A stretch of 7,889 nucleotides of DNA from a virus (lineage: Duplodnaviria > Heunggongvirae > Uroviricota > Caudoviricetes). How positions within the stretch are numbered: the first letter of the stretch is position 1; every line of letters begins with the position of its first letter. The position numbers were made by a program, and so were the translations under genes. The notes under the pieces are model-generated. The model was not told where the DNA came from. It saw nothing but the letters and a program-made list of their open reading frames with translations, and ran no database searches. The stretch lies in IMG/VR virus record IMGVR_UViG_2734482783_000012; one strand, written 5' to 3'. Below, in pieces: positions 1 through 7,889 of this stretch.

Positions 1-579
1 ATGCAGGTTGGCTATGTGCGTGTATCAACAAATGAACAAAACACCGCGCTACAGCGTGACGCTCTGGAAAGGTCGGGATGCGAGCTAATTTTCGAGGATA
101 AAATCAGCGGAAAATCGACCAACAGGCCGGGACTCAATCGAGCATTAAAACGACTTCAGGCTGGTGATACGCTGGTTGTCTGGAAGCTCGACCGGCTCGG
201 TCGTAGCATGCGGCATCTTGTCTCGATGACTGAAGAGCTTCGCCAGCGCGGCGTAAATTTCAGGAGCCTGACCGACAGTATCGATACTTCAACACCGATG
301 GGGCGTTTTTTCTTCCACATCATGGGCGCGCTTGCTGAAATGGAACGCGAGCTCATTGTCGAACGCACTCGCGCCGGGCTCGATGCCGCTCGCGCTCAGG
401 GCCGAATCGGAGGGCGTCGGCCAAAGCTGGCGCCAGACGAATGGGCTCAGGCCGGGCGACTGATTGCGGCCGGAGAAACCCGTCAGCGCGTCGCGATGAT
501 TTTTGATGTGGGCATATCGACACTATATAAAAAATTCCCGGCAACAAATCCCGTTGTGTCAGACACCGCCGAACCCTGA
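1..579 (+). CDS. Serine-recombinase DNA invertase, Gin/Hin/Pin/Cin family (192 aa, complete)
   Basis: Translation starts MQVGYVRVSTNEQ, with the catalytic Ser in the conserved VRVST motif. It carries GDTLVVWKLDRLGRS and SLTDSIDTS...MGRFFFH...ALAEMERELIVERT, typical of the small resolvase/invertase catalytic domain, and a C-terminal GRIGGRRPKL plus helix-turn-helix (VGISTLYKK). Length matches Gin/Hin (about 190 aa). ATG is at window position 1. Confidence 0.9.
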   Translation: MQVGYVRVSTNEQNTALQRDALERSGCELIFEDKISGKSTNRPGLNRALKRLQAGDTLVVWKLDRLGRSMRHLVSMTEELRQRGVNFRSLTDSIDTSTPMGRFFFHIMGALAEMERELIVERTRAGLDAARAQGRIGGRRPKLAPDEWAQAGRLIAAGETRQRVAMIFDVGISTLYKKFPATNPVVSDTAEP

Positions 580-643
580 CAAATAGCCGCATACAGGCGT
601 AAACCAGACAATATCACTCACCCCAACTAACGGAGTTAAACGG

Positions 644-1831
644 ATGAGTGATTATCATCACGGCGTCGACGTCGTCGAAATTAACGACGGAACACGCACA
701 ATCTCGACCGTATCAACGGCGGTTGTCGGCATGGTCTGTACGGCCAGTGATGCTGATGCCGATATGTTCCCGCTCAATGAGCCGGTACTGATTACCAGCC
801 CACAAAACGCCATCGCGAAAGCCGGTACCAAAGGTACCCTAGCAAAATCCTTACAGGCCATTGCTGACCAGTCAAAACCGGTCATCGTGGTCGTGCGCGT
901 TGCAGAGGGTACCGGAGACGGCGACGAGGCACAGGCGCAAACCATTTCAAACATCATCGGCACCACGGATGAGAACGGCAAATACACCGGGCTGAAAGCG
1001 CTGTTAACGGCGAAAGCGGTCACCGGCGTGAAGCCCCGTATTCTCGGTGTGCCGGGTCTCGATCCTCAGGAAGTCGCGACCGCGCTTGCGTCCGTGGCTC
1101 AGAAATTACGTGCTTTCGCTTACGTCAGCGCATGGGGCTGCAAGACCATTTCTGATGTTATCGCCTATCGTGAAAACTTCAGCGCCCGTGAGCTCATGAT
1201 TATCTGGCCTGATTTCCTCGGGTGGGACACGACGGCCAATGCGACGACAACCAGCTACGCGACCGCTATCGCGCTGGGGCTGCGCGCAAAAATCGACAAT
1301 GACACCGGGTGGCATAAAACCCTGTCGAACGTCGGCGTCAACGGTGTTACTGGCATCAGTGCATCGGTCTTCTGGGATTTGCAGGAAAAAGGCACCGATG
1401 CCGACCTGCTGAATGAAGCTGGTGTTACCACGCTGATTCGTGCTGATGGTTTCCGCTTCTGGGGTAACCGTAATTGCTCCGATGACCCGCTGTTTCAGTT
1501 TGAAAACTACACCCGCACCGCGCAAATTATCGCCGACACAATGGCCGAGGGGCATATGTGGGCAAACGATAAGCCCGTCACCGCCACGTTAATTCGCGAC
1601 ATTATCGGCGGTATTAACGCAAAATTCCGCGAGCTGAAAACCGGTGGTTACATCATCGATGCGACGTGCTGGTTTGACGAAGAGGCCAACAGCAAAGAAA
1701 CCCTCAAGGCCGGGAAGCTGTATATCGATTACGACTATACGCCGGTGCCGCCGCTCGAGAACCTGACCTTACGCCAGCGCATCACCGATAAATATCTGGC
1801 GAATCTGGTCTCATCCGTCAACAGCAAATAA
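644..1831 (+). CDS. FI: P2-type contractile tail sheath protein (gpFI-like, 395 aa)
   Basis: N-terminus MSDYHHGVDVVEINDGTRTISTVSTAVVGMVCTASDADA and C-terminus KLYIDYDYTPVPPLENLTLRQRITDKYLANLVSSVNSK match the P2 FI sheath family as I remember it. GGAG Shine-Dalgarno at 632-635, 8 nt before the ATG. Size matches P2 FI (about 396 aa). Confidence 0.9.
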   Translation: MSDYHHGVDVVEINDGTRTISTVSTAVVGMVCTASDADADMFPLNEPVLITSPQNAIAKAGTKGTLAKSLQAIADQSKPVIVVVRVAEGTGDGDEAQAQTISNIIGTTDENGKYTGLKALLTAKAVTGVKPRILGVPGLDPQEVATALASVAQKLRAFAYVSAWGCKTISDVIAYRENFSARELMIIWPDFLGWDTTANATTTSYATAIALGLRAKIDNDTGWHKTLSNVGVNGVTGISASVFWDLQEKGTDADLLNEAGVTTLIRADGFRFWGNRNCSDDPLFQFENYTRTAQIIADTMAEGHMWANDKPVTATLIRDIIGGINAKFRELKTGGYIIDATCWFDEEANSKETLKAGKLYIDYDYTPVPPLENLTLRQRITDKYLANLVSSVNSK

Positions 1832-1843
1832 GGAGCCTGACCA

Positions 1844-2362
1844 ATGGCATTACCGCGCAAGCTCAAACTCATAAACCTGTTTATCGACGGGGTGAGTTAC
1901 CTCGGCGTCGTGCAGTCTGTCACGCTGCCGAAATTAACCCGCAAGCTCGAGAATTATCGCGGCGGCGGGATGAATGGCTCGGCACCAGTCGACCTCGGCC
2001 TCGATGACGACGCACTGTCGGCTGAAATCTCGCTCGGTGGTTTCCCTGATGACGCTATCTGGTTGCTATACGCTGCCACCGGTACAGCTTCTGTCCCGCT
2101 GCGCTTTGCCGGGTCCTATCAGCGTGATGACACCGGCGAGACCGTGCCGGTTGAGGTTGTTCTCCGTGGCCGTCAGAAAGAAATCGACCTCGGCGAAGCC
2201 AAACAGGGCGAAGACACCGAGTCGAAAATCTCGCTCATGTGTACTTACTTCAAACTGACGATGAATGGCTCGGAACTGGTGGAAATCGACACGGTGAACC
2301 TCATCGAAAAAGTGAGCGGCACCGACATGCTCGAGGCGCACCGACAAAACATCGGCCTGTAA
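1844..2362 (+). CDS. FII: P2-type tail tube protein (gpFII-like, 172 aa)
   Basis: Lies immediately downstream of the sheath gene. AGGAG at 1831-1835, 8 nt before the ATG. 172 aa is the same length as P2 FII. The sheath-tube-E-T order is conserved. Confidence 0.88.
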   Translation: MALPRKLKLINLFIDGVSYLGVVQSVTLPKLTRKLENYRGGGMNGSAPVDLGLDDDALSAEISLGGFPDDAIWLLYAATGTASVPLRFAGSYQRDDTGETVPVEVVLRGRQKEIDLGEAKQGEDTESKISLMCTYFKLTMNGSELVEIDTVNLIEKVSGTDMLEAHRQNIGL

Positions 2363-2423
2363 TTCTGCCCCGGTCAGCATAGCTGGCCAAGCATCCTGAA
2401 ACCTGAATCTAAAGAGAAATATC

Positions 2424-2705
2424 ATGGAAAAAACTAACGAAAACATCGTCACTCTGATTAAACCCATTACGCGCGGCGAGCAGGTGATTACCGATGTCAC
2501 GCTGTTAAAACCGACGGCCGGAACCCTGCGCGGCGTTAGCTTGGCATCTGTCGCAAACTCCGACGTCGATGCGCTGATTAAAGTACTGCCGCGCATGACC
2601 ATGCCGTCACTGACCGAACAGGAGGCCGCCGCGCTGGAACTGCCCGACCTGCTGTCATTTGCCGGTAAGGTGGTTGGTTTTTTGTCACCGAATTCGGCGG
2701 CGTAA
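2424..2705 (+). CDS. E: Tail assembly chaperone gpE (93 aa, zero-frame product)
   Basis: Small ORF between the tube and tape measure genes. It contains an in-frame T TTT TTG slippery heptamer near its 3' end, as in P2 gene E. Weak SD AAGAG at 2412-2416. Confidence 0.85.
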   Translation: MEKTNENIVTLIKPITRGEQVITDVTLLKPTAGTLRGVSLASVANSDVDALIKVLPRMTMPSLTEQEAAALELPDLLSFAGKVVGFLSPNSAA

Positions 2706-2857
2706 CCTTCCCGAAAAAACTCTCGGTCGATGACCTGATGGCTGACATAGCGGTAATTTTCCACTGGTCGCCATCAGACCTGTATCCCATGAGCCTGACC
2801 GAACTCGTCAACTGGCGCGAAAAAGCGCTACAGCGAAGCGGAAACACGAATGAGTAA
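2424..2857 (+). CDS. E+E': Tail assembly chaperone gpE+E' made by programmed -1 ribosomal frameshift (predicted 144 aa)
   Basis: Hand translation of the -1 frame from 2684 gives VTEFGGVTFPKKLSVDDLMADIAVIFHWSPSDLYPMSLTELVNWREKALQRSGNTNE with no stop until TAA at 2855-2857. This extension has no start codon of its own and is reachable only by a -1 slip at TTTTTTG (2678-2684). The architecture is the same as P2 E/E' and lambda G/GT. Confidence 0.72.
2678..2684 (+). other. Slippery heptanucleotide T_TTT_TTG for the -1 programmed frameshift (E to E')
   Basis: Zero-frame codons are GGT TTT TTG (Gly85-Phe86-Leu87 of E). After a -1 slip both P- and A-site tRNAs can re-pair on TTT TTT. The zero-frame stop follows 7 codons later and the -1 frame stays open for 57 codons. 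Confidence 0.7.
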
Positions 2858-5279
2858 TAACCTCAAACTCGAAGTGCTGCTGAAAGCTGTCGACCAGGCG
2901 ACCCGACCCTTTAAAGCGATCCAGACGGCGAGCAAATCGCTGTCTGGCGATATCCGCACGACTCAGCAATCCCTGCGTGATTTGAATGGTCAGGCATCGA
3001 AAATCGACGGTTTTCGCAAAACCAGCGCACAACTGGCGGTAACCGGACAGGCACTGGAAAAGGCAAAACAGGAAGCCGCCGAGCTGGCGGTGCAGTTTAA
3101 AAACACGGAACGGCCAACGGCGGCACAGGCCAGAGTGCTGGAATCAGCAAAGCGTTCGGCTGAAGGGTTACAGGCAAAATATAACAGCCTCACCCAATCG
3201 GTGAAGCGGCAACAGACCGAGCTCGGCAAAGCGGGGATTAATACGCGCAATCTGTCGAATGATGAAAGCCGCCTGAAAAACTCTATCAATGAAACTACCG
3301 CACAACTTAACCGCCAGCGTGAAGCACTGGCGCGGGTCAGCGCGCAACAGGCAAAACTCAGCGCAGTACAAAAACGCTATCAGGCAGGAAAGGCACTGGC
3401 TGGAAATGCGGCATCGATGGGCGCTGCCGGGATAGGCATGGCAACGACCGGAGCGCTTGCCGGTGTTGCACTGATGAAGCCCGGTTATGATTTTGCTCAG
3501 AAAAACTCTGAGTTACAGGCCGTTCTCGGTGTCGGTAAAGACTCAGCTGATATGGTGGTGCTCCGCAAACAGGCGCGCCAGCTCGGTGACAACACCGCCG
3601 CGTCGGCTGATGATGCTGCCGGTGCTCAGATTATTATTGCAAAGGCTGGCGGCGATGCTGCGGCTATTCAGGCCGCTACCCCCGTAACACTCGATATGGC
3701 GCTCGCAAACCGTCGAACGATGGAAGAGAACGCCGGGTTATTGATGGGGATGCGCTCTGCCTTCCAGCTTTCAAACGATAAGGTCGCCCATATCGGTGAT
3801 GTTCTGTCGATGACGATGAACAAAACCGCCGCCGACTTTGACGGCCTGAGTGATGCGCTGACTTATGCCGCGCCGGTGGCGAAAAATGCCGGGGTCAGCA
3901 TCGAAGAAACAGCCGCAATGGTCGGCGCACTGCATGACGCCAAAATTACGGGCTCGATGGCGGGTACGGGGAGCCGTGCCGTATTAAGTCGCCTGCAGGC
4001 TCCAACGGGCAAAGCGTATGACGCCATTAAAGAGCTCGGCGTCAAAACGGCTGATGGTAAGGGGAACACACGTCCAATATTTACCATCCTGAAAGAAATG
4101 CAGCGGAGTTTTGATAAAAACAACCTCGGCACCGGCCAGCGTGCCGAATATATGAAAACCATTTTCGGTGAAGAGGCCAGCTCGTCGGCTGCGGTACTCA
4201 TGACCGCTGCCTCGAGCGGGAAATTAGACCAGCTTACCGCTTCCCTTAAAGCATCGGATGGCAAAACCGCTGAGCTGGTGAAGGTCATGCAGGATAACCT
4301 CGGCGGCGATTTTAAAGAGTTTCAGTCTGCGTATGAAGCGGTAGGAACCGACCTGTTTGACCAGCAAGAGTCATCATTAAGAAAGCTGGTACAAACGACG
4401 ACAGGGTATGTATTGAGGCTCGATAGCTGGATCCAAAAGAACAAATCTCTTGCCACCACGCTGGGTGTCATTACGGCGGCAGCTGTCGGTATTGTGGGGA
4501 TGATTGGTGCCATTGGCCTTGTATCGTGGCCGGTAATTACTGGCATTAACGCCATCATTTCGGCGGCTGGTGCGCTTGGTGCGGTCTTTACGACAATCAG
4601 TGGCGGGGTCATTGCGGCTATTGGTGCTATTACGTGGCCTGTCGTGGCGGTAGCGGCGGCTGTTGTCGCTGGCGCGCTGCTTATCCGTAAATACTGGGAG
4701 CCTGTCAGCGCATTCTTTGCCGGTGTGGTCGAGGGGCTCATGAGTGCCTTTGCGCCGGTCGGGGAAATGTTCGCCCCGCTGGCACCCATTTTCGACGGTC
4801 TCGGCGAAAAACTTCGCGGCGTCTGGCAGTGGTTTAAAGACCTGATAGCGCCGGTGAAAGCGACTCAGGACACGCTCAACAGTTGTCGTGATGTTGGGGT
4901 TATGTTCGGTCAGACGCTGGCCGATGCGCTGCTGATGCCGCTTAACGCCTTTAACAAGCTGCGAAGCGGGATTGACTGGGTGCTCGAAAAACTCGGCATT
5001 ATCAACAAAGAATCCAGCTCACTTGACCAGACTGCGGCGAAAGCCAATGCAGCGACGCAGAACGGTTACAGCCCGGTAATCAGCGCATACAACAGCTATC
5101 AGCCGGTCACGGCACCCGCCGGTAAAACCTACATCGACCAGAGTCGGCCAATCTATCAAATCACCGTGCCGGGCAATGGTATGCCGGGAGATCGGTTGGG
5201 TAATGATTTGCAGGATGCATTAGAAAAGTATGAGCGCGAGAAGCGCGCCAAAGCCCGCGCAAGCATGATGCATGACTAA
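2850..5279 (+). CDS. T: Tail tape measure protein (gpT-like, 809 aa)
   Basis: Large ORF directly after E/E'. The N-terminal half is Gln/Ala/Lys-rich and coiled-coil-like. A long Gly/Ala/Ile-rich hydrophobic segment lies near residues 540-615. Size is close to P2 gpT (about 815 aa). The ATG overlaps the E' stop. Confidence 0.9.
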   Translation: MSNNLKLEVLLKAVDQATRPFKAIQTASKSLSGDIRTTQQSLRDLNGQASKIDGFRKTSAQLAVTGQALEKAKQEAAELAVQFKNTERPTAAQARVLESAKRSAEGLQAKYNSLTQSVKRQQTELGKAGINTRNLSNDESRLKNSINETTAQLNRQREALARVSAQQAKLSAVQKRYQAGKALAGNAASMGAAGIGMATTGALAGVALMKPGYDFAQKNSELQAVLGVGKDSADMVVLRKQARQLGDNTAASADDAAGAQIIIAKAGGDAAAIQAATPVTLDMALANRRTMEENAGLLMGMRSAFQLSNDKVAHIGDVLSMTMNKTAADFDGLSDALTYAAPVAKNAGVSIEETAAMVGALHDAKITGSMAGTGSRAVLSRLQAPTGKAYDAIKELGVKTADGKGNTRPIFTILKEMQRSFDKNNLGTGQRAEYMKTIFGEEASSSAAVLMTAASSGKLDQLTASLKASDGKTAELVKVMQDNLGGDFKEFQSAYEAVGTDLFDQQESSLRKLVQTTTGYVLRLDSWIQKNKSLATTLGVITAAAVGIVGMIGAIGLVSWPVITGINAIISAAGALGAVFTTISGGVIAAIGAITWPVVAVAAAVVAGALLIRKYWEPVSAFFAGVVEGLMSAFAPVGEMFAPLAPIFDGLGEKLRGVWQWFKDLIAPVKATQDTLNSCRDVGVMFGQTLADALLMPLNAFNKLRSGIDWVLEKLGIINKESSSLDQTAAKANAATQNGYSPVISAYNSYQPVTAPAGKTYIDQSRPIYQITVPGNGMPGDRLGNDLQDALEKYEREKRAKARASMMHD

Positions 5280-5290
5280 GGAGACTGATT

Positions 5291-5755
5291 ATGATGCTGG
5301 CATTAGGTATGTTTGTTTTTATGCGTCAGACGCTGCCCTACCAGAGCATGCAGCGCAGCGCGGATTATAGCTGGGCGTCAAACTCTCGCATCGGGAAGCG
5401 TGACGCTTTTCAGTATCTCGGCGAGGGGGAAGATAAAATCACCCTGAGCGGCGACCTGTATCCTGAGCTGACCGGCGGTAAGCTCACGATGCTGGCGCTT
5501 TATGCAATGGCTGAACAGGGGCGCGCATGGCCGCTTATCTCTGGCTCAGGCTGGATTTACGGGATGTTTGTTGTCAGTAATGTCTCGGAGACCGGCACGG
5601 TATTTTTTGAGGATGGGACGCCACGAAAAATCAGCTTCACCCTGTCACTGACCCGTGTCGATGAGTCGCTCGCCGCGGTGTATGGCGATATTGGAAAACA
5701 GGCCGAAAGTCTGGTCGGGAAAGCTGGCGATCTGCTGTCGATGGTGGGGGCGTAA
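5291..5755 (+). CDS. U: Tail protein gpU-like (154 aa)
   Basis: AAGGAG SD at 5278-5283, 7 nt before the ATG. Motifs YQSMQRS...NSRIGKR...ITLSGDLYPELTGGK...FFEDGTPRKISFTL resemble P2 gpU. Position between T and D is conserved. Confidence 0.85.
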   Translation: MMLALGMFVFMRQTLPYQSMQRSADYSWASNSRIGKRDAFQYLGEGEDKITLSGDLYPELTGGKLTMLALYAMAEQGRAWPLISGSGWIYGMFVVSNVSETGTVFFEDGTPRKISFTLSLTRVDESLAAVYGDIGKQAESLVGKAGDLLSMVGA

Positions 5756-5757
5756 TC

Positions 5758-6930
5758 ATGCTGGATATTATCACCGGCGCGGGTGCCACGCTGACGCCCG
5801 ACTTTATGCTGACACTGGAAAGCAAAGATATCACCGGCAATATCAGTGACCGGCTGATTAACCTCTCGATGACGGACAATCGGGGTTTTGAGGCCGACCA
5901 GCTCGACATCGAGCTCGACGATACTGACGGTCTGGTCGCATTGCCGATTCGCGGTGCGGTGCTGTCGCTGTATCTCGGGTGGAAAGGTTTCTCTCTGGTC
6001 AGCAAGGGGCGATTTACCGTCGATGAGGTAGAGCACCGGGGGGCGCCGGATACGGTAACCATTCGCGCCCGGAGTGCGGATTTTCGCGGGACGCTTAATT
6101 CCCGTCGTGAGGAGTCATGGCATGACACCACGCTCGGCGCAATCGTCAGCTCGATAGCTGAGCGGAACAAGTTAACGGCCAGCGTCACTGATTCTCTTGC
6201 GGGGATCCAGATTCCGCATATCGACCAGTCTCAGGAATCCGACGCCGTTTTCCTGACTCGCCTCGCAGAACGCAACGGCGGTGCGGTCTCAGTGAAAGCG
6301 GGTAGATTGCTGATGCTCAAAGCGGGAAGCGGTACCACTGCCAGTGGAAAAGCTATTCCTCAAATTACCATCCAGCGCGGTGACGGTGACCGGCATCAGT
6401 TTGCCATTGCCGACCGTGGCGCTTACACCGGCGTAACCGCTAAGTGGCTGCACACTAAAGACCCGAAACCGGCGAAACAAAAGCAGACAGTGAAGCTGAA
6501 ACGTAAGCCCAAAGAGCAACACCTCCGGGCGCTACAGCACCCGAAAGCAAAACCAGTGAGCAGTAAAGTCACGGCCAAAAAGCAAAAAGAGCAGGAAGCC
6601 CGCGAGGGTGAATACATGGCCGGTGAGGCTGACAACGTTTTCGCGCTGACGACCATTTACGCGACAAAGGCGCAAGCGATGCGTGCAGCTCAGGCGAAGT
6701 GGGATAAATTGCAGCGTGGGGTTGCGGAGTTCTCCATTATGTTAGCGACCGGCCGCGAGGATATTTACCCCGAAACGCCGGTCAGGGTCTCAGGCTTTAA
6801 GAGCGTTATAGACGAGCAAGCATGGATAGTCAGCAGGGTGACCCATAATATCGGTGGGAATGGCTTCACAACGGCTGTAGAGCTTGAGGTGATGCTTTCT
6901 GATGTAGGGTACGAGGCCGAAGAGCAATAA
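5758..6930 (+). CDS. D: Tail/baseplate-hub protein gpD-like (phage late control D family, 390 aa)
   Basis: The ATG lies 2 nt after the U stop. N-terminus MLDIITGAGATLTPDFMLTLESKDITGNISDRLINLSMTDNRGFEADQLDIELDD is typical of the P2 D family. Size is close to P2 D (387 aa). Confidence 0.87.
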   Translation: MLDIITGAGATLTPDFMLTLESKDITGNISDRLINLSMTDNRGFEADQLDIELDDTDGLVALPIRGAVLSLYLGWKGFSLVSKGRFTVDEVEHRGAPDTVTIRARSADFRGTLNSRREESWHDTTLGAIVSSIAERNKLTASVTDSLAGIQIPHIDQSQESDAVFLTRLAERNGGAVSVKAGRLLMLKAGSGTTASGKAIPQITIQRGDGDRHQFAIADRGAYTGVTAKWLHTKDPKPAKQKQTVKLKRKPKEQHLRALQHPKAKPVSSKVTAKKQKEQEAREGEYMAGEADNVFALTTIYATKAQAMRAAQAKWDKLQRGVAEFSIMLATGREDIYPETPVRVSGFKSVIDEQAWIVSRVTHNIGGNGFTTAVELEVMLSDVGYEAEEQ

Positions 6931-6935
6931 AGCTG

Positions 6936-6964
6936 TTCACAAAATATGACTAAGTGAGTATTAT
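6936..6964 (+). promoter_or_regulatory. Putative sigma70-type promoter for ogr (-35 TTCACA, 17-bp spacer, -10 TATTAT)
   Basis: TTCACA at 6936-6941 and TATTAT at 6959-6964 with a 17-bp spacer, in the 66-bp D-ogr gap. A G-rich SD (GGGG at 6988-6991) lies 5 nt before the ATG at 6997. Assigned by consensus match only. Confidence 0.35.
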
Positions 6965-6996
6965 TAATTCACTTTTTGTGAGTTCATGGGGTGTGT

Positions 6997-7218
6997 ATGT
7001 TTCATTGTCCAAAGTGCCAGCATGCGGCGCATGCGCGTACTAGTCGCTATCTTAGCGAAAACACGAAAGAACGTTACCACCAATGCACCAACATAAATTG
7101 CAGTTGCACATTTGTGACCATGGAATCAGTGGAGCGCTATATCGTAACCCCTGGGATCATTATACCAGCTCCACCGCATCCATCTTCTAGTGGGCAAAGT
7201 GCTTTACCTTGGTTGTAA
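6997..7218 (+). CDS. ogr: Ogr-family zinc-finger late transcription activator (73 aa)
   Basis: MFHCPKCQHAAHARTSRYLSENTKERYHQCTNINCSCTF is nearly colinear with P2 Ogr as I remember it (MFHCPLCQHAAHARTSRY...KERYHQC...C), including the Cys-X2-Cys...Cys-X4-Cys zinc-binding arrangement. I place the start at ATG 6997, not the upstream GTG at 6991 used by the ORF track, because it gives the conserved MFHCP N-terminus and better SD spacing. Confidence 0.88.
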   Translation: MFHCPKCQHAAHARTSRYLSENTKERYHQCTNINCSCTFVTMESVERYIVTPGIIIPAPPHPSSSGQSALPWL

Positions 7219-7221
7219 AAT

Positions 7222-7245
7222 GAGCCCGCAGTATGCGGGTTTCAT
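7222..7245. terminator. Hairpin between convergent ogr and the minus-strand ORF; probable bidirectional intrinsic terminator
   Basis: Stem CCCGCA (7225-7230), loop GTA, stem TGCGGG (7234-7239), extendable by A-T and G-U pairs to 7223/7241. It is followed by TTT on the + strand and by CATTTTAC on the minus strand. It starts 4 nt after the ogr stop and overlaps the stop of the minus-strand ORF. Confidence 0.5.
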
Positions 7246-7889
7246 CGTAGTAGCCCTTTCGTCAGCTCTTCATTGGTACAGTATTTATAGAGATCCTTAA
7301 GCCCTTGTTCGATCCACACCATTTCTTCAAGAGCATACCCTGAAAAACCATACATGACGCTATTGAGCCCCAGCATCTGCGATGTATCTTCATTATCAAT
7401 TATTGAGTCATAAAAATGCCTCAATTCAATGACTGCCACATAGCCTAAATTAGCATTTTCATAAAAAGCTGAGTCAAGTTTAGCTATATCATATAAATAC
7501 TTTGCGAAAGTCGCTACTGAGGGTTTGATTAGCTCTCCCCCCGAAACAGAAACGTCATTTTCTGTTACGGTCCAACGCATTTTTCCTGCTGTAGTTCTTA
7601 CGATACTGAAGCTGAGAGGGCACTCGTTCATAGGGCTTTGCTCGTATGGGGCAAACTCTTTACATAATCCCTTTATTTTTTGGCTTATATACCAAGCTAA
7701 CTGGCACTCTCGGGCAAAAATTTTCTTGAGGGCACTAATCTCATTTTTTTTTGCTTTTGATTTACGGCGCCAATCTAGTACTTCTCTTACAACGAAAAGA
7801 CAAATTGCAACAAAAGCAGATACTGGGATTAATGAACCGTTTGTCAACAGGCTTAGCCAATCGTACTGCGCAGCAGTTTCTACAGCCAT
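7242..7889 (-). CDS. Hypothetical membrane-anchored protein (215 aa); AT-rich accessory gene of unknown function
   Basis: Uninterrupted 215-codon ORF whose ATG is the last three bases of the window. Residues about 18-37 (SLIPVSAFVAICLFVVREVL) form a predicted transmembrane helix, followed by a basic stretch RRKSKAKKNE and a soluble domain of about 170 aa with no motif I recognise. GC content by eye is about 30-40%, against about 55% for the tail genes. It is convergent with ogr. Confidence 0.6.
   Translation of the reverse strand: MAVETAAQYDWLSLLTNGSLIPVSAFVAICLFVVREVLDWRRKSKAKKNEISALKKIFARECQLAWYISQKIKGLCKEFAPYEQSPMNECPLSFSIVRTTAGKMRWTVTENDVSVSGGELIKPSVATFAKYLYDIAKLDSAFYENANLGYVAVIELRHFYDSIIDNEDTSQMLGLNSVMYGFSGYALEEMVWIEQGLKDLYKYCTNEELTKGLLR

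Follow-up and report, generated by a model that had tools for sequence, protein, structure and literature searches.

The last gene of the window (the whole 7,889-nucleotide stretch analysed here, IMG/VR record IMGVR_UViG_2734482783_000012) raises two questions, namely whether it is phage cargo or the beginning of the host chromosome, and what its product might do. Two neighbouring genes define the locus:

7242 to 7889, minus strand: coding sequence of ORF215, an accessory membrane-anchored protein (stop codon at 7242-7244, ATG at 7887-7889; RefSeq and homologues)
6997 to 7218, plus strand: ogr, the homologue of 186 B, a late-gene activator and the last core gene (Pfam Ogr_Delta, E = 7e-23; RefSeq)

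In the list of open reading frames, positions 7242-7889 of the minus strand form a complete frame of 215 amino acids whose ATG ends at the final base of the window, and RefSeq holds the identical coding sequence as WP_137500785.1. ORF215 and ogr are convergent, with their stop codons 23 bp apart. The original prediction, made from the letters of the window, had placed the gene on the strand opposite to ogr with its start codon at the window's edge, and both points are borne out. The same prediction had called the gene AT-rich. Over the entire frame the GC content is 0.404, compared with 0.552 for the tail genes (positions 1-6930) and 0.469 for ogr, and the hand counts that had been offered are exact (0.317 for 7381-7440, 0.267 for 7441-7500 and 0.550 for 1381-1440). 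The codon-usage analysis proposed at that time, now carried out, gives 10.6 rare codons per 100 in ORF215 versus 2.5-3.8 in the tail genes. ORF215 has 26 close homologues, and pairwise dN/dS values are 0.08-0.15. Because dN/dS lies near 0.1 and the family is broad, a spurious reading frame is excluded; ORF215 is a real and conserved, though uncharacterised, accessory gene on the border of a prophage of the phage-186 type. Two other readings of the frame were discarded. An annotation of 229 amino acids (P0001), with 14 extra N-terminal residues, would begin in the terminator and arm-site region, and its start is contradicted by RefSeq and by the homologues, every complete one of which has 214-215 amino acids. 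Nor do the AUA codons of ORF215, 4 of its 13 Ile codons, point distinctively to a tie with the neighbouring tRNA that reads AUA.

The window represents the right end of a P2-family prophage of the phage-186 type (Eganvirus-like), located in the tRNA-Ile gene ileX of E. coli. Its genes run in the order sheath, tube, E/E', tape measure, U, D and Ogr/B (open reading frames, Pfam and RefSeq annotation), and the D-B region of 186 shares 75% DNA identity with it, in agreement with the earlier statement that everything except ORF215 is P2-type core. Inspection of the sequence past 7889, which had been recommended, revealed tRNA ileX, the att core and arm sites. The att core is a 19-nt sequence common to both prophage ends (12592-12610 of contig L002 and 21097-21115 of contig L001) and lies within ileX, approximately 107 bp past the ORF215 start codon. 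The prophage is thus integrated in the 3' half of the tRNA-Ile gene, with 186-type arm sites, and its far end carries the CI/CII/Fil/int region; integration of 186 at ileY and ileX has been described (PMC3448106). Since the att core lies beyond ORF215, the gene is inside the prophage and is phage cargo, not part of a flanking host island, and the suggestion that it might be the first gene of an island beyond attR does not stand. The claim that ORF215 is not Int does stand, since int is found about 30 kb away, at the opposite end of the integrated prophage. No integrase adjoins ORF215 because the window lies at the prophage end that carries ogr, and only the circular form of the phage brings int next to it. 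Contig L035, which is in the phage form, has the order cI, int, attP and ORF215, then ogr on the opposite strand, and contains no complete tRNA. All family members at least 38% identical to ORF215 and with visible upstream sequence show the same short spacing after the tRNA core. We are almost certain of this overall anatomy. Two more slots of the prophage carry cargo: the S-V slot encodes a DUF4062 protein, and the att-int slot a protein of 415 aa. A two-gene system of ORF215 and the 415-aa gene, split by attP, was considered and rejected, the 415-aa gene being missing from both L035 and 186.

ORF215 is flanked by the ogr/B terminator on one side and by the P arm of attP on the other, and the signals that delimit this slot within the window are the following:

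7225 to 7239, no strand assigned: a 15-nt hairpin, CCCGCAGTATGCGGG, separating ogr from the convergent ORF215, the positional equivalent of the 186 terminator tB (terminator scan; 186 annotation)
7881 to 7889, no strand assigned: in-window part of an integrase arm-type site, TACAGCCATTT, which includes the ORF215 start codon and is cut by the window end (one mismatch to the 186 consensus)

The 186 attP region (U32222 annotation) consists of B, tB, three arm-type sites, the lysogenic-operon terminator, an IHF site, a truncated tRNA-Ile, attP, Apl sites, Orf69, int and cI. The order of elements is the same here and the sequences are recognisably homologous, including the arm-site consensus, the hairpin and the integration in tRNA-Ile. 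However, the ORF215 locus lacks the inverted third arm site of 186, and the ATG in the arm site, which opens a 10-codon frame in 186, here opens a 215-codon gene. The slot is empty in 186, is likewise empty in both ileY-type prophages read (L033 and L034, standing for 39 E. coli genomes), and is filled by an unrelated 240-aa gene in the one rplS-side relative read. The proposed comparison of this position among related prophages thus finds this gene, an unrelated gene or nothing. As for the possibility that a known P2-family core gene resides here, homologues of ORF215 are absent from 186, from 50,697 phage records and from those ileY-type and rplS-type relatives that were read. The gene is a horizontally acquired accessory ('moron') gene outside the P2/186 core, as its low GC content had led the original prediction to suspect. 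Like ORF215, the morons of the P2 family are low-GC, dispensable single genes at positions that differ between close relatives, and the proteins Old, Tin and Fun show no similarity to that of ORF215. In the excerpts of two surveys (PMC9122126; bioRxiv 10.64898/2026.02.27.708500), accessory slots of P2-like prophages are given as old and tin (gpA-portal), Z/fun (tail-fibre to FI), orf30 (S to V) and att-int, and defence hotspots as gpA-portal, Z/fun, downstream of gpL, int-att and int-primase; the ogr/B-attP slot is not among the hotspots named in those excerpts.

The product of ORF215 was described at the outset as one N-terminal transmembrane helix, a basic juxtamembrane stretch and a soluble domain. 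Hydropathy, Lys/Arg counts and a structural model agree on this architecture, which divides the gene as follows:

7779 to 7841, minus strand: single N-terminal transmembrane helix, residues ~17-37 (hydropathy, charge count and family conservation)
7740 to 7787, minus strand: Lys/Arg-rich juxtamembrane stretch, residues 35-50, REVLDWRRKSKAKKNE (sequence and residue count)
7245 to 7739, minus strand: predicted cytoplasmic domain, residues 51-215 (AlphaFold2 model; alignments A1, A2 and A3)

The best 19-residue Kyte-Doolittle window comprises residues 20-38, with a mean of 2.25, and the N-terminal membrane helix is kept across the family, with F32 and E36 invariant in the alignments. Residues 1-16 contain no Lys or Arg, compared with seven in residues 35-50, and this asymmetry before and after the helix is conserved family-wide. 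This charge bias predicts a cytoplasmic location for the soluble domain, and the ORF215 protein would be bitopic, crossing the inner membrane once from an outer N-terminus to a C-terminus in the cytoplasm. The AlphaFold2 model (mean pLDDT 86.8) is a membrane-anchored helical bundle with a small beta-meander, in which a long helix runs to residue 84, three strands form the meander at 92-119, and later helices span residues 126-138, 140-173 and 182-205. The motifs conserved in the family (alignments A1, A2 and A3) are ARECxLN at 59-65, H158 and YxxCT at 201-205, so that the predicted cytoplasmic domain appears to carry a conserved E-C...H...Y-x-x-C-T patch.

Neither the fold nor these motifs clearly place the protein in a known class. 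The suggested structure search, run with Foldseek on the AlphaFold2 model, gave no match at E < 0.001. The fold matches are generic, namely DUF3829 (4yjw), chemoreceptor ligand-binding four-helix bundles and ClyA (6mrt); their sequence identity to ORF215 is 3-12%, and de novo designed bundles score equally well or better. ClyA has a hydrophobic beta-tongue, and the beta-meander of the ORF215 model is polar. The HEPN motif R-x(4-6)-H, expected of a HEPN abortive-infection protein or RNase, is absent from the family alignments; the family instead conserves H-x-R (H141 and R143 in A3, H158 in ORF215).

A profile search recovered 308 family representatives (50%-identity clusters) at E <= 1e-3, nearly all full-length, and this unnamed family is spread over the Alpha-, Beta- and Gammaproteobacteria. 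ORF215 DNA is present in 2 of 5426 complete E. coli genomes; for the commonest motif, 5 loci were found among 100,044 species representatives, and the same narrower alignment returned 5 viral and 13 metagenome loci. Family libraries support the earlier view that the soluble domain lacks a recognisable enzymatic signature. Pfam gave no match for ORF215 or for 46 family members. PADLOC-DB 2.0.0, whose use had been proposed, held no family for ORF215 at E <= 1 and yielded one chance-level match for the 46 members (E = 0.0018; CARF_HEPN and RE_Bpu10I are weak single-member matches). The best NCBIfam match to ORF215 was NF046005, at 14.3 bits against a cut-off of 45. Likewise, the best PHROGs match for ORF215 and the 46 members was phrog_13420 at E = 0.026, which is chance level, and the best E in a PDB sequence-profile search was 0.12. 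A literature search for the accession numbers found no mention of them.

The surroundings of ORF215 bear on how it might be expressed. A second arm-type site, TATCGCCACTC, is a perfect match to the 186 consensus YAYCGCCAYTY (U32222 annotation; PMC3448106); it lies directly beyond the window and spans the ribosome-binding region of ORF215. Approximately 30 nt upstream of the gene is the hairpin annotated in 186 as the terminator of the lysogenic (cI-int) operon, which in the lysogen comes after the reconstituted tRNA. A scan for a sigma-70-like promoter for ORF215 found none, and since an intrinsic terminator stands directly upstream, expression in the lysogen can only be assumed. Transcripts would have to read through this terminator; in the lysogen they would come from the ileX promoter, whereas in the circular phage the lysogenic operon would supply them. 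A TATAAT upstream of the hairpin was rejected as the ORF215 promoter, given that it is also present in ileY-type prophages that lack the frame and coincides with the IHF footprint annotated in 186.

The gene also occurs where the prophage does not. At six loci (L007-L010, L016 and L031) the prophage has decayed and an intact gene persists, alone or with few neighbours. The solo copies are prophage remnants, because they are followed by a displaced tRNA 3' tip and the native terminator (L007, in a 53-nt alignment) or by a second full att core (L016, which retains both). The 214-aa allele type of the solo copies is also found in intact prophages (L045 and L066). An ancestral chromosomal gene captured by a phage was rejected, since duplicated att/tRNA fragments flank the solo copies. 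Survival after decay may have a simple cause, in that deletions cannot enter the tRNA at the att end that reconstitutes it. The gene retained together with ORF215 at L016 encodes a PDC-S15 FRG protein (E = 1.5e-101), and at L012-L015 the co-retained genes encode a TIR protein and a PDC-S45-like protein. Distant members adjoin an Old-family ATPase-TOPRIM protein (L060), a MazE/PrlF-like gene (L018 and L025) or integrases (L029 and L050), and one lies directly upstream of an AbiP/AbiC-like membrane protein (L048); some members are far from any att or int context. All-against-all blastp and phmmer comparison of 23 distant-member loci found no partner gene common to independent loci, and the association with defence genes is a matter of about ten contexts and not of statistical enrichment.

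Small membrane-anchored proteins that act in prophage exclusion or abortive infection include lactococcal Sie2009, HK97 gp15, P22 SieA, T4 Imm and lactococcal AbiC/AbiP. Like ORF215, proteins of this type are small and N-terminally anchored, lack an enzymatic signature and are encoded outside lytic operons, and we tentatively propose, with some doubt, that ORF215 is an exclusion or defence factor. Made at a low level in the lysogen, the protein would work as a single-gene factor at the cytoplasmic face of the inner membrane, excluding or aborting infection by other phages. For a defence role speak the copies that outlast the prophage and the Old-like, AbiP/AbiC-like, TIR, PDC-S15 and MazE-like neighbours; against it speak the library searches, empty for ORF215 and 46 members, and the lack of a conserved partner gene. 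No sequence or structural similarity to Sie2009, HK97 gp15, SieA, Imm or AbiC/AbiP was detected. In classical injection-blocking exclusion proteins the bulk faces outward, and the functional domain of the Sie2009/HK97 gp15 type is external or periplasmic, whereas the bulk of ORF215 is predicted to be cytoplasmic from its Lys/Arg bias, a predicted difference that counts against the proposal. A more elaborate form of the proposal, which we consider improbable as a whole, is a new family of single-gene anti-phage proteins anchored in the inner membrane, with a gene set into the P arm of attP and integration rewiring its expression: before integration, in the circular phage, it would be the terminator-insulated tail of the cI-int transcript, and in the lysogen it would directly follow the ileX tRNA promoter of the host, which would then keep it after prophage decay.

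Some chance, though a small one, attaches to a lysogenic-conversion factor with no anti-phage role, whose membrane-anchored cytoplasmic bundle would act on some process of the host inner membrane or envelope, by binding or regulation (transport, signalling or stress response), and so give the lysogen an advantage in some niches; but the non-P2 neighbours of the family are defence and mobile-element genes and not metabolic or envelope operons, and the gene is sporadic and rare by the genome counts given above. It is unlikely that ORF215 is a membrane-active, toxin-like effector of a toxin-antitoxin or addiction module, the P2-borne clade being partnerless or muted by low expression behind the terminator. 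The terminator directly upstream would indeed keep expression low, the gene persists after prophage loss, and in one sub-clade a same-strand 71-72-aa gene of MazE/PrlF type (Pfam E = 5e-10) lies 22-33 bp downstream, both in an E. coli primase/integrase element (P0194) and in Microvirga (P0201). These two proteins are 86% identical, however, and therefore count as one independent observation; nothing indicates that the ORF215 protein is toxic, and no co-oriented antitoxin-like frame occurs beside ORF215 or in the other contexts examined. At ORF215 itself there is no room for one, with the ogr stop 23 bp away and attP upstream. This reading overlaps the abortive-infection version of the defence reading.

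A part in the phage life cycle is more doubtful still. ORF215 would then end the cI-int transcript of the circular genome and aid the establishment of lysogeny, integration or excision; in L035 it has the same orientation as cI and int on the other side of attP, and its start codon and ribosome-binding region lie in integrase arm-type sites. Yet 186 and its ileY-type relatives integrate without it, the lysogenic-operon terminator separates int from it, family members also occur far from att and int, and a membrane anchor is unexpected in a recombination factor. That ORF215 is a host gene, the first gene of an island beyond attR or a spurious frame is very improbable, for although homologues in Enterobacter and some other genomes lie beside mug and a tRNA with no prophage, the position of the att core, the remnant marks of the solo copies, their allele type in intact prophages and the dN/dS values all argue against it.

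Should ORF215 have no part in defence, it is still a prophage moron of the ordinary, uncharacterised sort, now well delimited. If the defence or exclusion reading is correct, an unnamed family of 308 clusters would join the single-gene prophage defences, and the ogr/B-attP position would be added as a cargo slot to those named in the excerpts of the P2-like hotspot surveys. The start of ORF215 in an integrase-binding site, directly behind a terminator shared by the lysogenic operon and the reconstituted tRNA, further raises the question of whether integration switches transcription of the gene from phage to host control.

The features of the window on which the analysis rests are as follows.

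1-579, plus strand, Hin/Cin-type invertase (Resolvase and HTH_7)
644-6930, plus strand, P2-family tail genes FI, FII, E/E', T, U and D
2424-2705, plus strand, E of the tail assembly chaperone pair
2738-2857, plus strand, GpE-family ORF overlapping the start of T (2850)
6997-7218, plus strand, ogr (Pfam Ogr_Delta, E = 7e-23)
7225-7239, hairpin equivalent to terminator tB of phage 186
7242-7889, minus strand, ORF215, 215 aa, with its ATG at the very end of the window

The GC content of ORF215 is 40.4%, that of ogr is 46.9%, and that of window 1-6930 is 55.2%. The original prediction had described an AT-rich, opposite-strand ORF with one membrane helix followed by a basic stretch, and base composition, hydropathy and Lys/Arg counts all confirm this description. 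Its hand counts of local GC are exact (31.7% and 26.7% within the ORF, 55.0% in the sheath gene), and the codon-usage comparison it proposed reveals rare codons at three to four times the frequency of the tail genes. The single strongly hydrophobic segment spans residues 20-38 (mean hydropathy 2.25), with no Lys or Arg ahead of it and 7 such residues among the 16 behind it. Elsewhere in the window, the E and GpE-family ORFs have the usual P2 E/E' programmed-frameshift arrangement. The invertase lies between tail-fibre genes and FI, downstream of a tail-fibre gene annotated as incomplete and of small ORFs on both strands; this region (10726-13680 of L001, the window-bearing end of the E. coli EC23-1020 prophage) looks like an invertible tail-fibre (host-range) switch at the Z/fun position.

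Window 6900-7889 is present at 100% identity in just 2 of 5426 complete E. coli genomes, those of strains A15 and EC23-1020, and has no match among 50,697 phage records. In EC23-1020, ORF215 is annotated as hypothetical protein WP_137500785.1. Beyond position 7889, where the original prediction advised looking for an integrase, tRNA or att repeats, we found a tRNA with anticodon CAT (annotated tRNA-Ile, ileX), followed by mug, rpoD and dnaG. The opposite prophage end lies approximately 30 kb away, adjoining nfeF, and carries in order a gene for a 415-aa hypothetical protein, int, CI, CII, Fil, a replication endonuclease and a DinI-like gene, a regulatory region of the phage 186 type. The two junctions have in common a 19-nt core inside the tRNA (12592-12610 of L002, the nfeF end, and 21097-21115 of L001). 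The nfeF side retains the native 3' portion of the tRNA, displaced, and the native terminator; on the mug side the tRNA is complete and owes its 3' portion to the phage. Because the shared att core lies within the tRNA, beyond the ORF, ORF215 belongs to the prophage and is its final gene ahead of the att site, which excludes the alternative that it belongs to a flanking island beyond attR.

The reconstituted ileX tRNA of the lysogen (L001 21070-21145, just outside the window) is a hybrid: its phage-supplied T-arm, GTTGGTTCAAACCCAAC, differs from the native GCTGGTTCAAGTCCAGC retained at attL by one compensatory stem pair and two loop changes, and the native-type T-arm sequence is present in phage 186 and every other locus examined. 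The 415-aa protein (WP_047674709.1, L002 12740-13987) fills the slot between attL and int where 186 has Orf69; it is missing from 186 and from L035, an IMG/VR contig, and gives weak matches to PADLOC DzbB (E = 5.6e-8) and, below threshold, Pfam MauJ. The same prophage encodes a 447-aa DUF4062 protein between the S-like and V genes (L001 6807-8150), the P2 orf30 position, and two hypothetical proteins (243 and 220 aa) between the DinI-like and portal genes, the tin/old hotspot position; none of these three has a PADLOC match.

Phage 186 integrates at ileY and ileX (PMC3448106). Its record shows, in order, B (the Ogr homologue), terminator tB, arm-type sites, a "predicted terminator of the lysogenic operon", an IHF footprint, a truncated tRNA-Ile holding the crossover, Apl sites, Orf69, int and cI. 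The integrase arm-type consensus is YAYCGCCAYTY, with three sites left of attP. The window phage has the same elements, with ORF215 inserted between tB and the arm sites. Read from the tRNA towards the ORF, they are:

AAGCCACTCAAATGAGTGGCTTTTTTG, right after the tRNA, a terminator with a 9-bp stem
GGAGTGGCGATAAAATGGCTGTAGAA, about 30 nt past that terminator, holding both arm-type sites
GAGTGGCGATA, within GGAGTGGCGATAAAATGGCTGTAGAA, the reverse complement of a perfect arm-type site, spanning the GGAG ribosome-binding sequence
AAATGGCTGTA, the reverse complement of the second arm-type site, containing the ORF215 start codon

The second site has one mismatch in the window phage and is perfect in Klebsiella-type copies. 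In 186, the same arm-site ATG opens just a 10-codon frame, MAVDFLPPLS (approximately 4470-4500 of the 186 record, minus strand), which runs into the third, inverted arm site, whereas in the window phage it opens the 215 codons of ORF215. The enterobacterial ORF215 clade appears to have gained an extra 12-14 or so N-terminal residues via the arm-site ATG; a 214-aa sub-clade starts at a separate ATG, 17 nt downstream and in another frame. The unusual feature of ORF215 is that its translation start overlaps integrase arm-type sites, behind a dual-use terminator.

We observed no sigma-70-like promoter on the ORF215 strand between the tRNA region and the ATG; a TATAAT right after the tRNA is shared with relatives lacking the ORF and coincides with the 186 IHF footprint. 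In L035, which represents the phage form, cI and int are followed by an attP-like site that lacks a complete tRNA, then by ORF215 and, on the opposite strand, ogr. In the circular genome, ORF215 thus comes after the lysogenic operon and its terminator. In the lysogen it comes after ileX, again with that terminator in between. Transcription of ORF215 would presumably occur by terminator read-through. In E. coli, tRNA genes can share a transcript with a protein gene, as in the tufB operon.

The original prediction proposed comparing the position downstream of ogr across related prophages. Searching with D and ogr, we distinguished three states in E. coli of the slot between the ogr/B terminator and the P arm of attP.

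State 1, 2 genomes: 100% identity to window D and ogr, at ileX, with ORF215
State 2, 39 genomes: 86-87% identity over D and ogr, with 157 bp holding just the hairpin and arm sites
State 3, 17 genomes: 99.7% identity over D, the match ending 23 bp before the D stop codon

State 2 was read in 2 of its 39 genomes, at a tRNA-Ile adjoining glaH (ileY), and state 3 in 1 of 17, strain FORC 064, where the prophage lies beside rplS. Its ogr is another allele, all sequence beyond ogr differs too, and an unrelated gene for a 240-aa protein (hypothetical protein WP_000948616.1, 5506-6228 of L032) fills the slot in the orientation of ORF215. This protein does not resemble ORF215 (BLASTP E = 6.5) and matches nothing in Pfam or PADLOC. 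The slot is variable, holding ORF215, nothing or the unrelated gene in the prophages read. A recombination breakpoint falls between window position ~6907 and 7241, with GC declining from 0.559 in D through 0.469 in ogr to 0.404 in ORF215; the identity break at D/ogr and the intermediate GC of ogr suggest that ogr, slot and att region are exchanged as a unit. This slot is absent from the P2 hotspots named in the consulted passages of the literature on P2-like prophages.

ORF215 belongs to an unnamed protein family. A word-indexed search returned 26 homologues (46-75% identity), all from Enterobacteriaceae and all named "hypothetical", and 123 contigs of a large sequence collection encode the exact window protein. 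Truncated copies (48-112 aa) of an otherwise identical protein in some E. coli assemblies (P0212, P0215, P0219, P0222) may represent either sporadic pseudogenes or breaks in the assemblies. When a profile was searched against 1.84 billion representatives, 308 proteins scored E <= 1e-3, and 181 of them E <= 1e-10; nearly all have 190-205 aa and align full-length. They include proteins from Betaproteobacteria (Sulfuriferula, Noviherbaspirillum, Ramlibacter, Curvibacter, Pelomonas) and from the alphaproteobacterium Microvirga, and a second E. coli protein at 26% identity. Motifs conserved across the family are LARECELN (FARECQLAW in ORF215), H-x-R on the long return helix, LYxxCTG and an RLR at the C-terminus, in addition to the membrane helix and the basic stretch behind it; all 46 diverse members share F32, E36 and E61. 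Pairwise dN/dS is 0.08-0.15; ORF215 is a genuine gene and evolves under purifying selection. Neither ORF215 nor family members matched anything in Pfam, NCBIfam, PHROG, PADLOC or PDB sequences. In an AlphaFold2 model (24-sequence alignment, mean pLDDT 86.8, pTM 0.74), the membrane helix runs unbroken to residue 84, followed by a three-strand meander (92-119) and helices 126-138, 140-173 and 182-205. The product is predicted to be bitopic in the inner membrane, with a helical bundle as its cytoplasmic domain.

All members at least 38% identical to ORF215 that have visible upstream sequence lie the same short distance past the tRNA-Ile core, and ogr and D come next in most of them. In Enterobacter loci L007-L010 the prophage is lost, leaving the tRNA, the phage-type hairpin and arm site, an intact 214-aa gene and its terminator, then the displaced 11-nt tRNA tip, native terminator and host fimbrial genes; this tRNA tip and native terminator match the attL side of E. 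coli in a 53-nt alignment. Another locus, L031, has a homologue after mug and the tRNA without a prophage. Because intact prophages (L045, L066) also carry the 214-aa allele type, the solo copies derive from prophages. A 3.7-kb island between two att cores (L016) holds a homologue, an IS3 element and an FRG-domain protein matching PADLOC PDC-S15 (E = 1.5e-101), and nothing else. Decayed prophages of Enterobacter bugandensis and relatives (L012-L015) retain a homologue, ogr, a TIR protein, a trypsin-like PDC-S45-like protein, R and LysC fragments, and int.

Among distant members, L060 adjoins an Old-family ATPase-TOPRIM protein beside uvrB; L048, on a viral contig, lies directly upstream of an AbiP/AbiC-like membrane protein; L029 and L050 adjoin tyrosine recombinases; L047 and L049 are on viral contigs with portal or DnaB-like genes; and in L020 and L021 the gene stands alone on a chromosomal island. 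In one sub-clade, a MazE/PrlF-like gene (71-72 aa) lies 22-33 bp downstream of a 201-aa member, both in an E. coli primase/integrase element (L018 8001-8857) and in Microvirga (L025 1661-2503). These 201-aa proteins are 86% identical, implying recent long-range transfer between classes, so the linkage counts once. No neighbour family recurs between independent loci.

ORF215 is an accessory gene that a 186-type phage carries as a physical part of its attP P arm. The variable slot, the survival of the gene in remnants with candidate defence genes, and the defence or mobile-element neighbours elsewhere lead us to favour, tentatively and at somewhat short of an even chance, a function advantageous to the lysogen, which would most likely be to exclude other phages, or to abort infection, at the inner membrane. 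This defence reading is weakened by the lack of homology support, by the small sample of contexts and by a neutral explanation for retention, in which such a gene is spared since deletions cannot enter the phage-reconstituted tRNA end. A lysogenic-conversion role other than defence is possible, if rather unlikely; a toxin-like effector, which would overlap with abortive infection, is more doubtful still, and an accessory role in the phage life cycle is improbable. ORF215 is an uncharacterised prophage moron and a candidate single-gene defence, one that would not surprise a specialist and is a sensible candidate to test.
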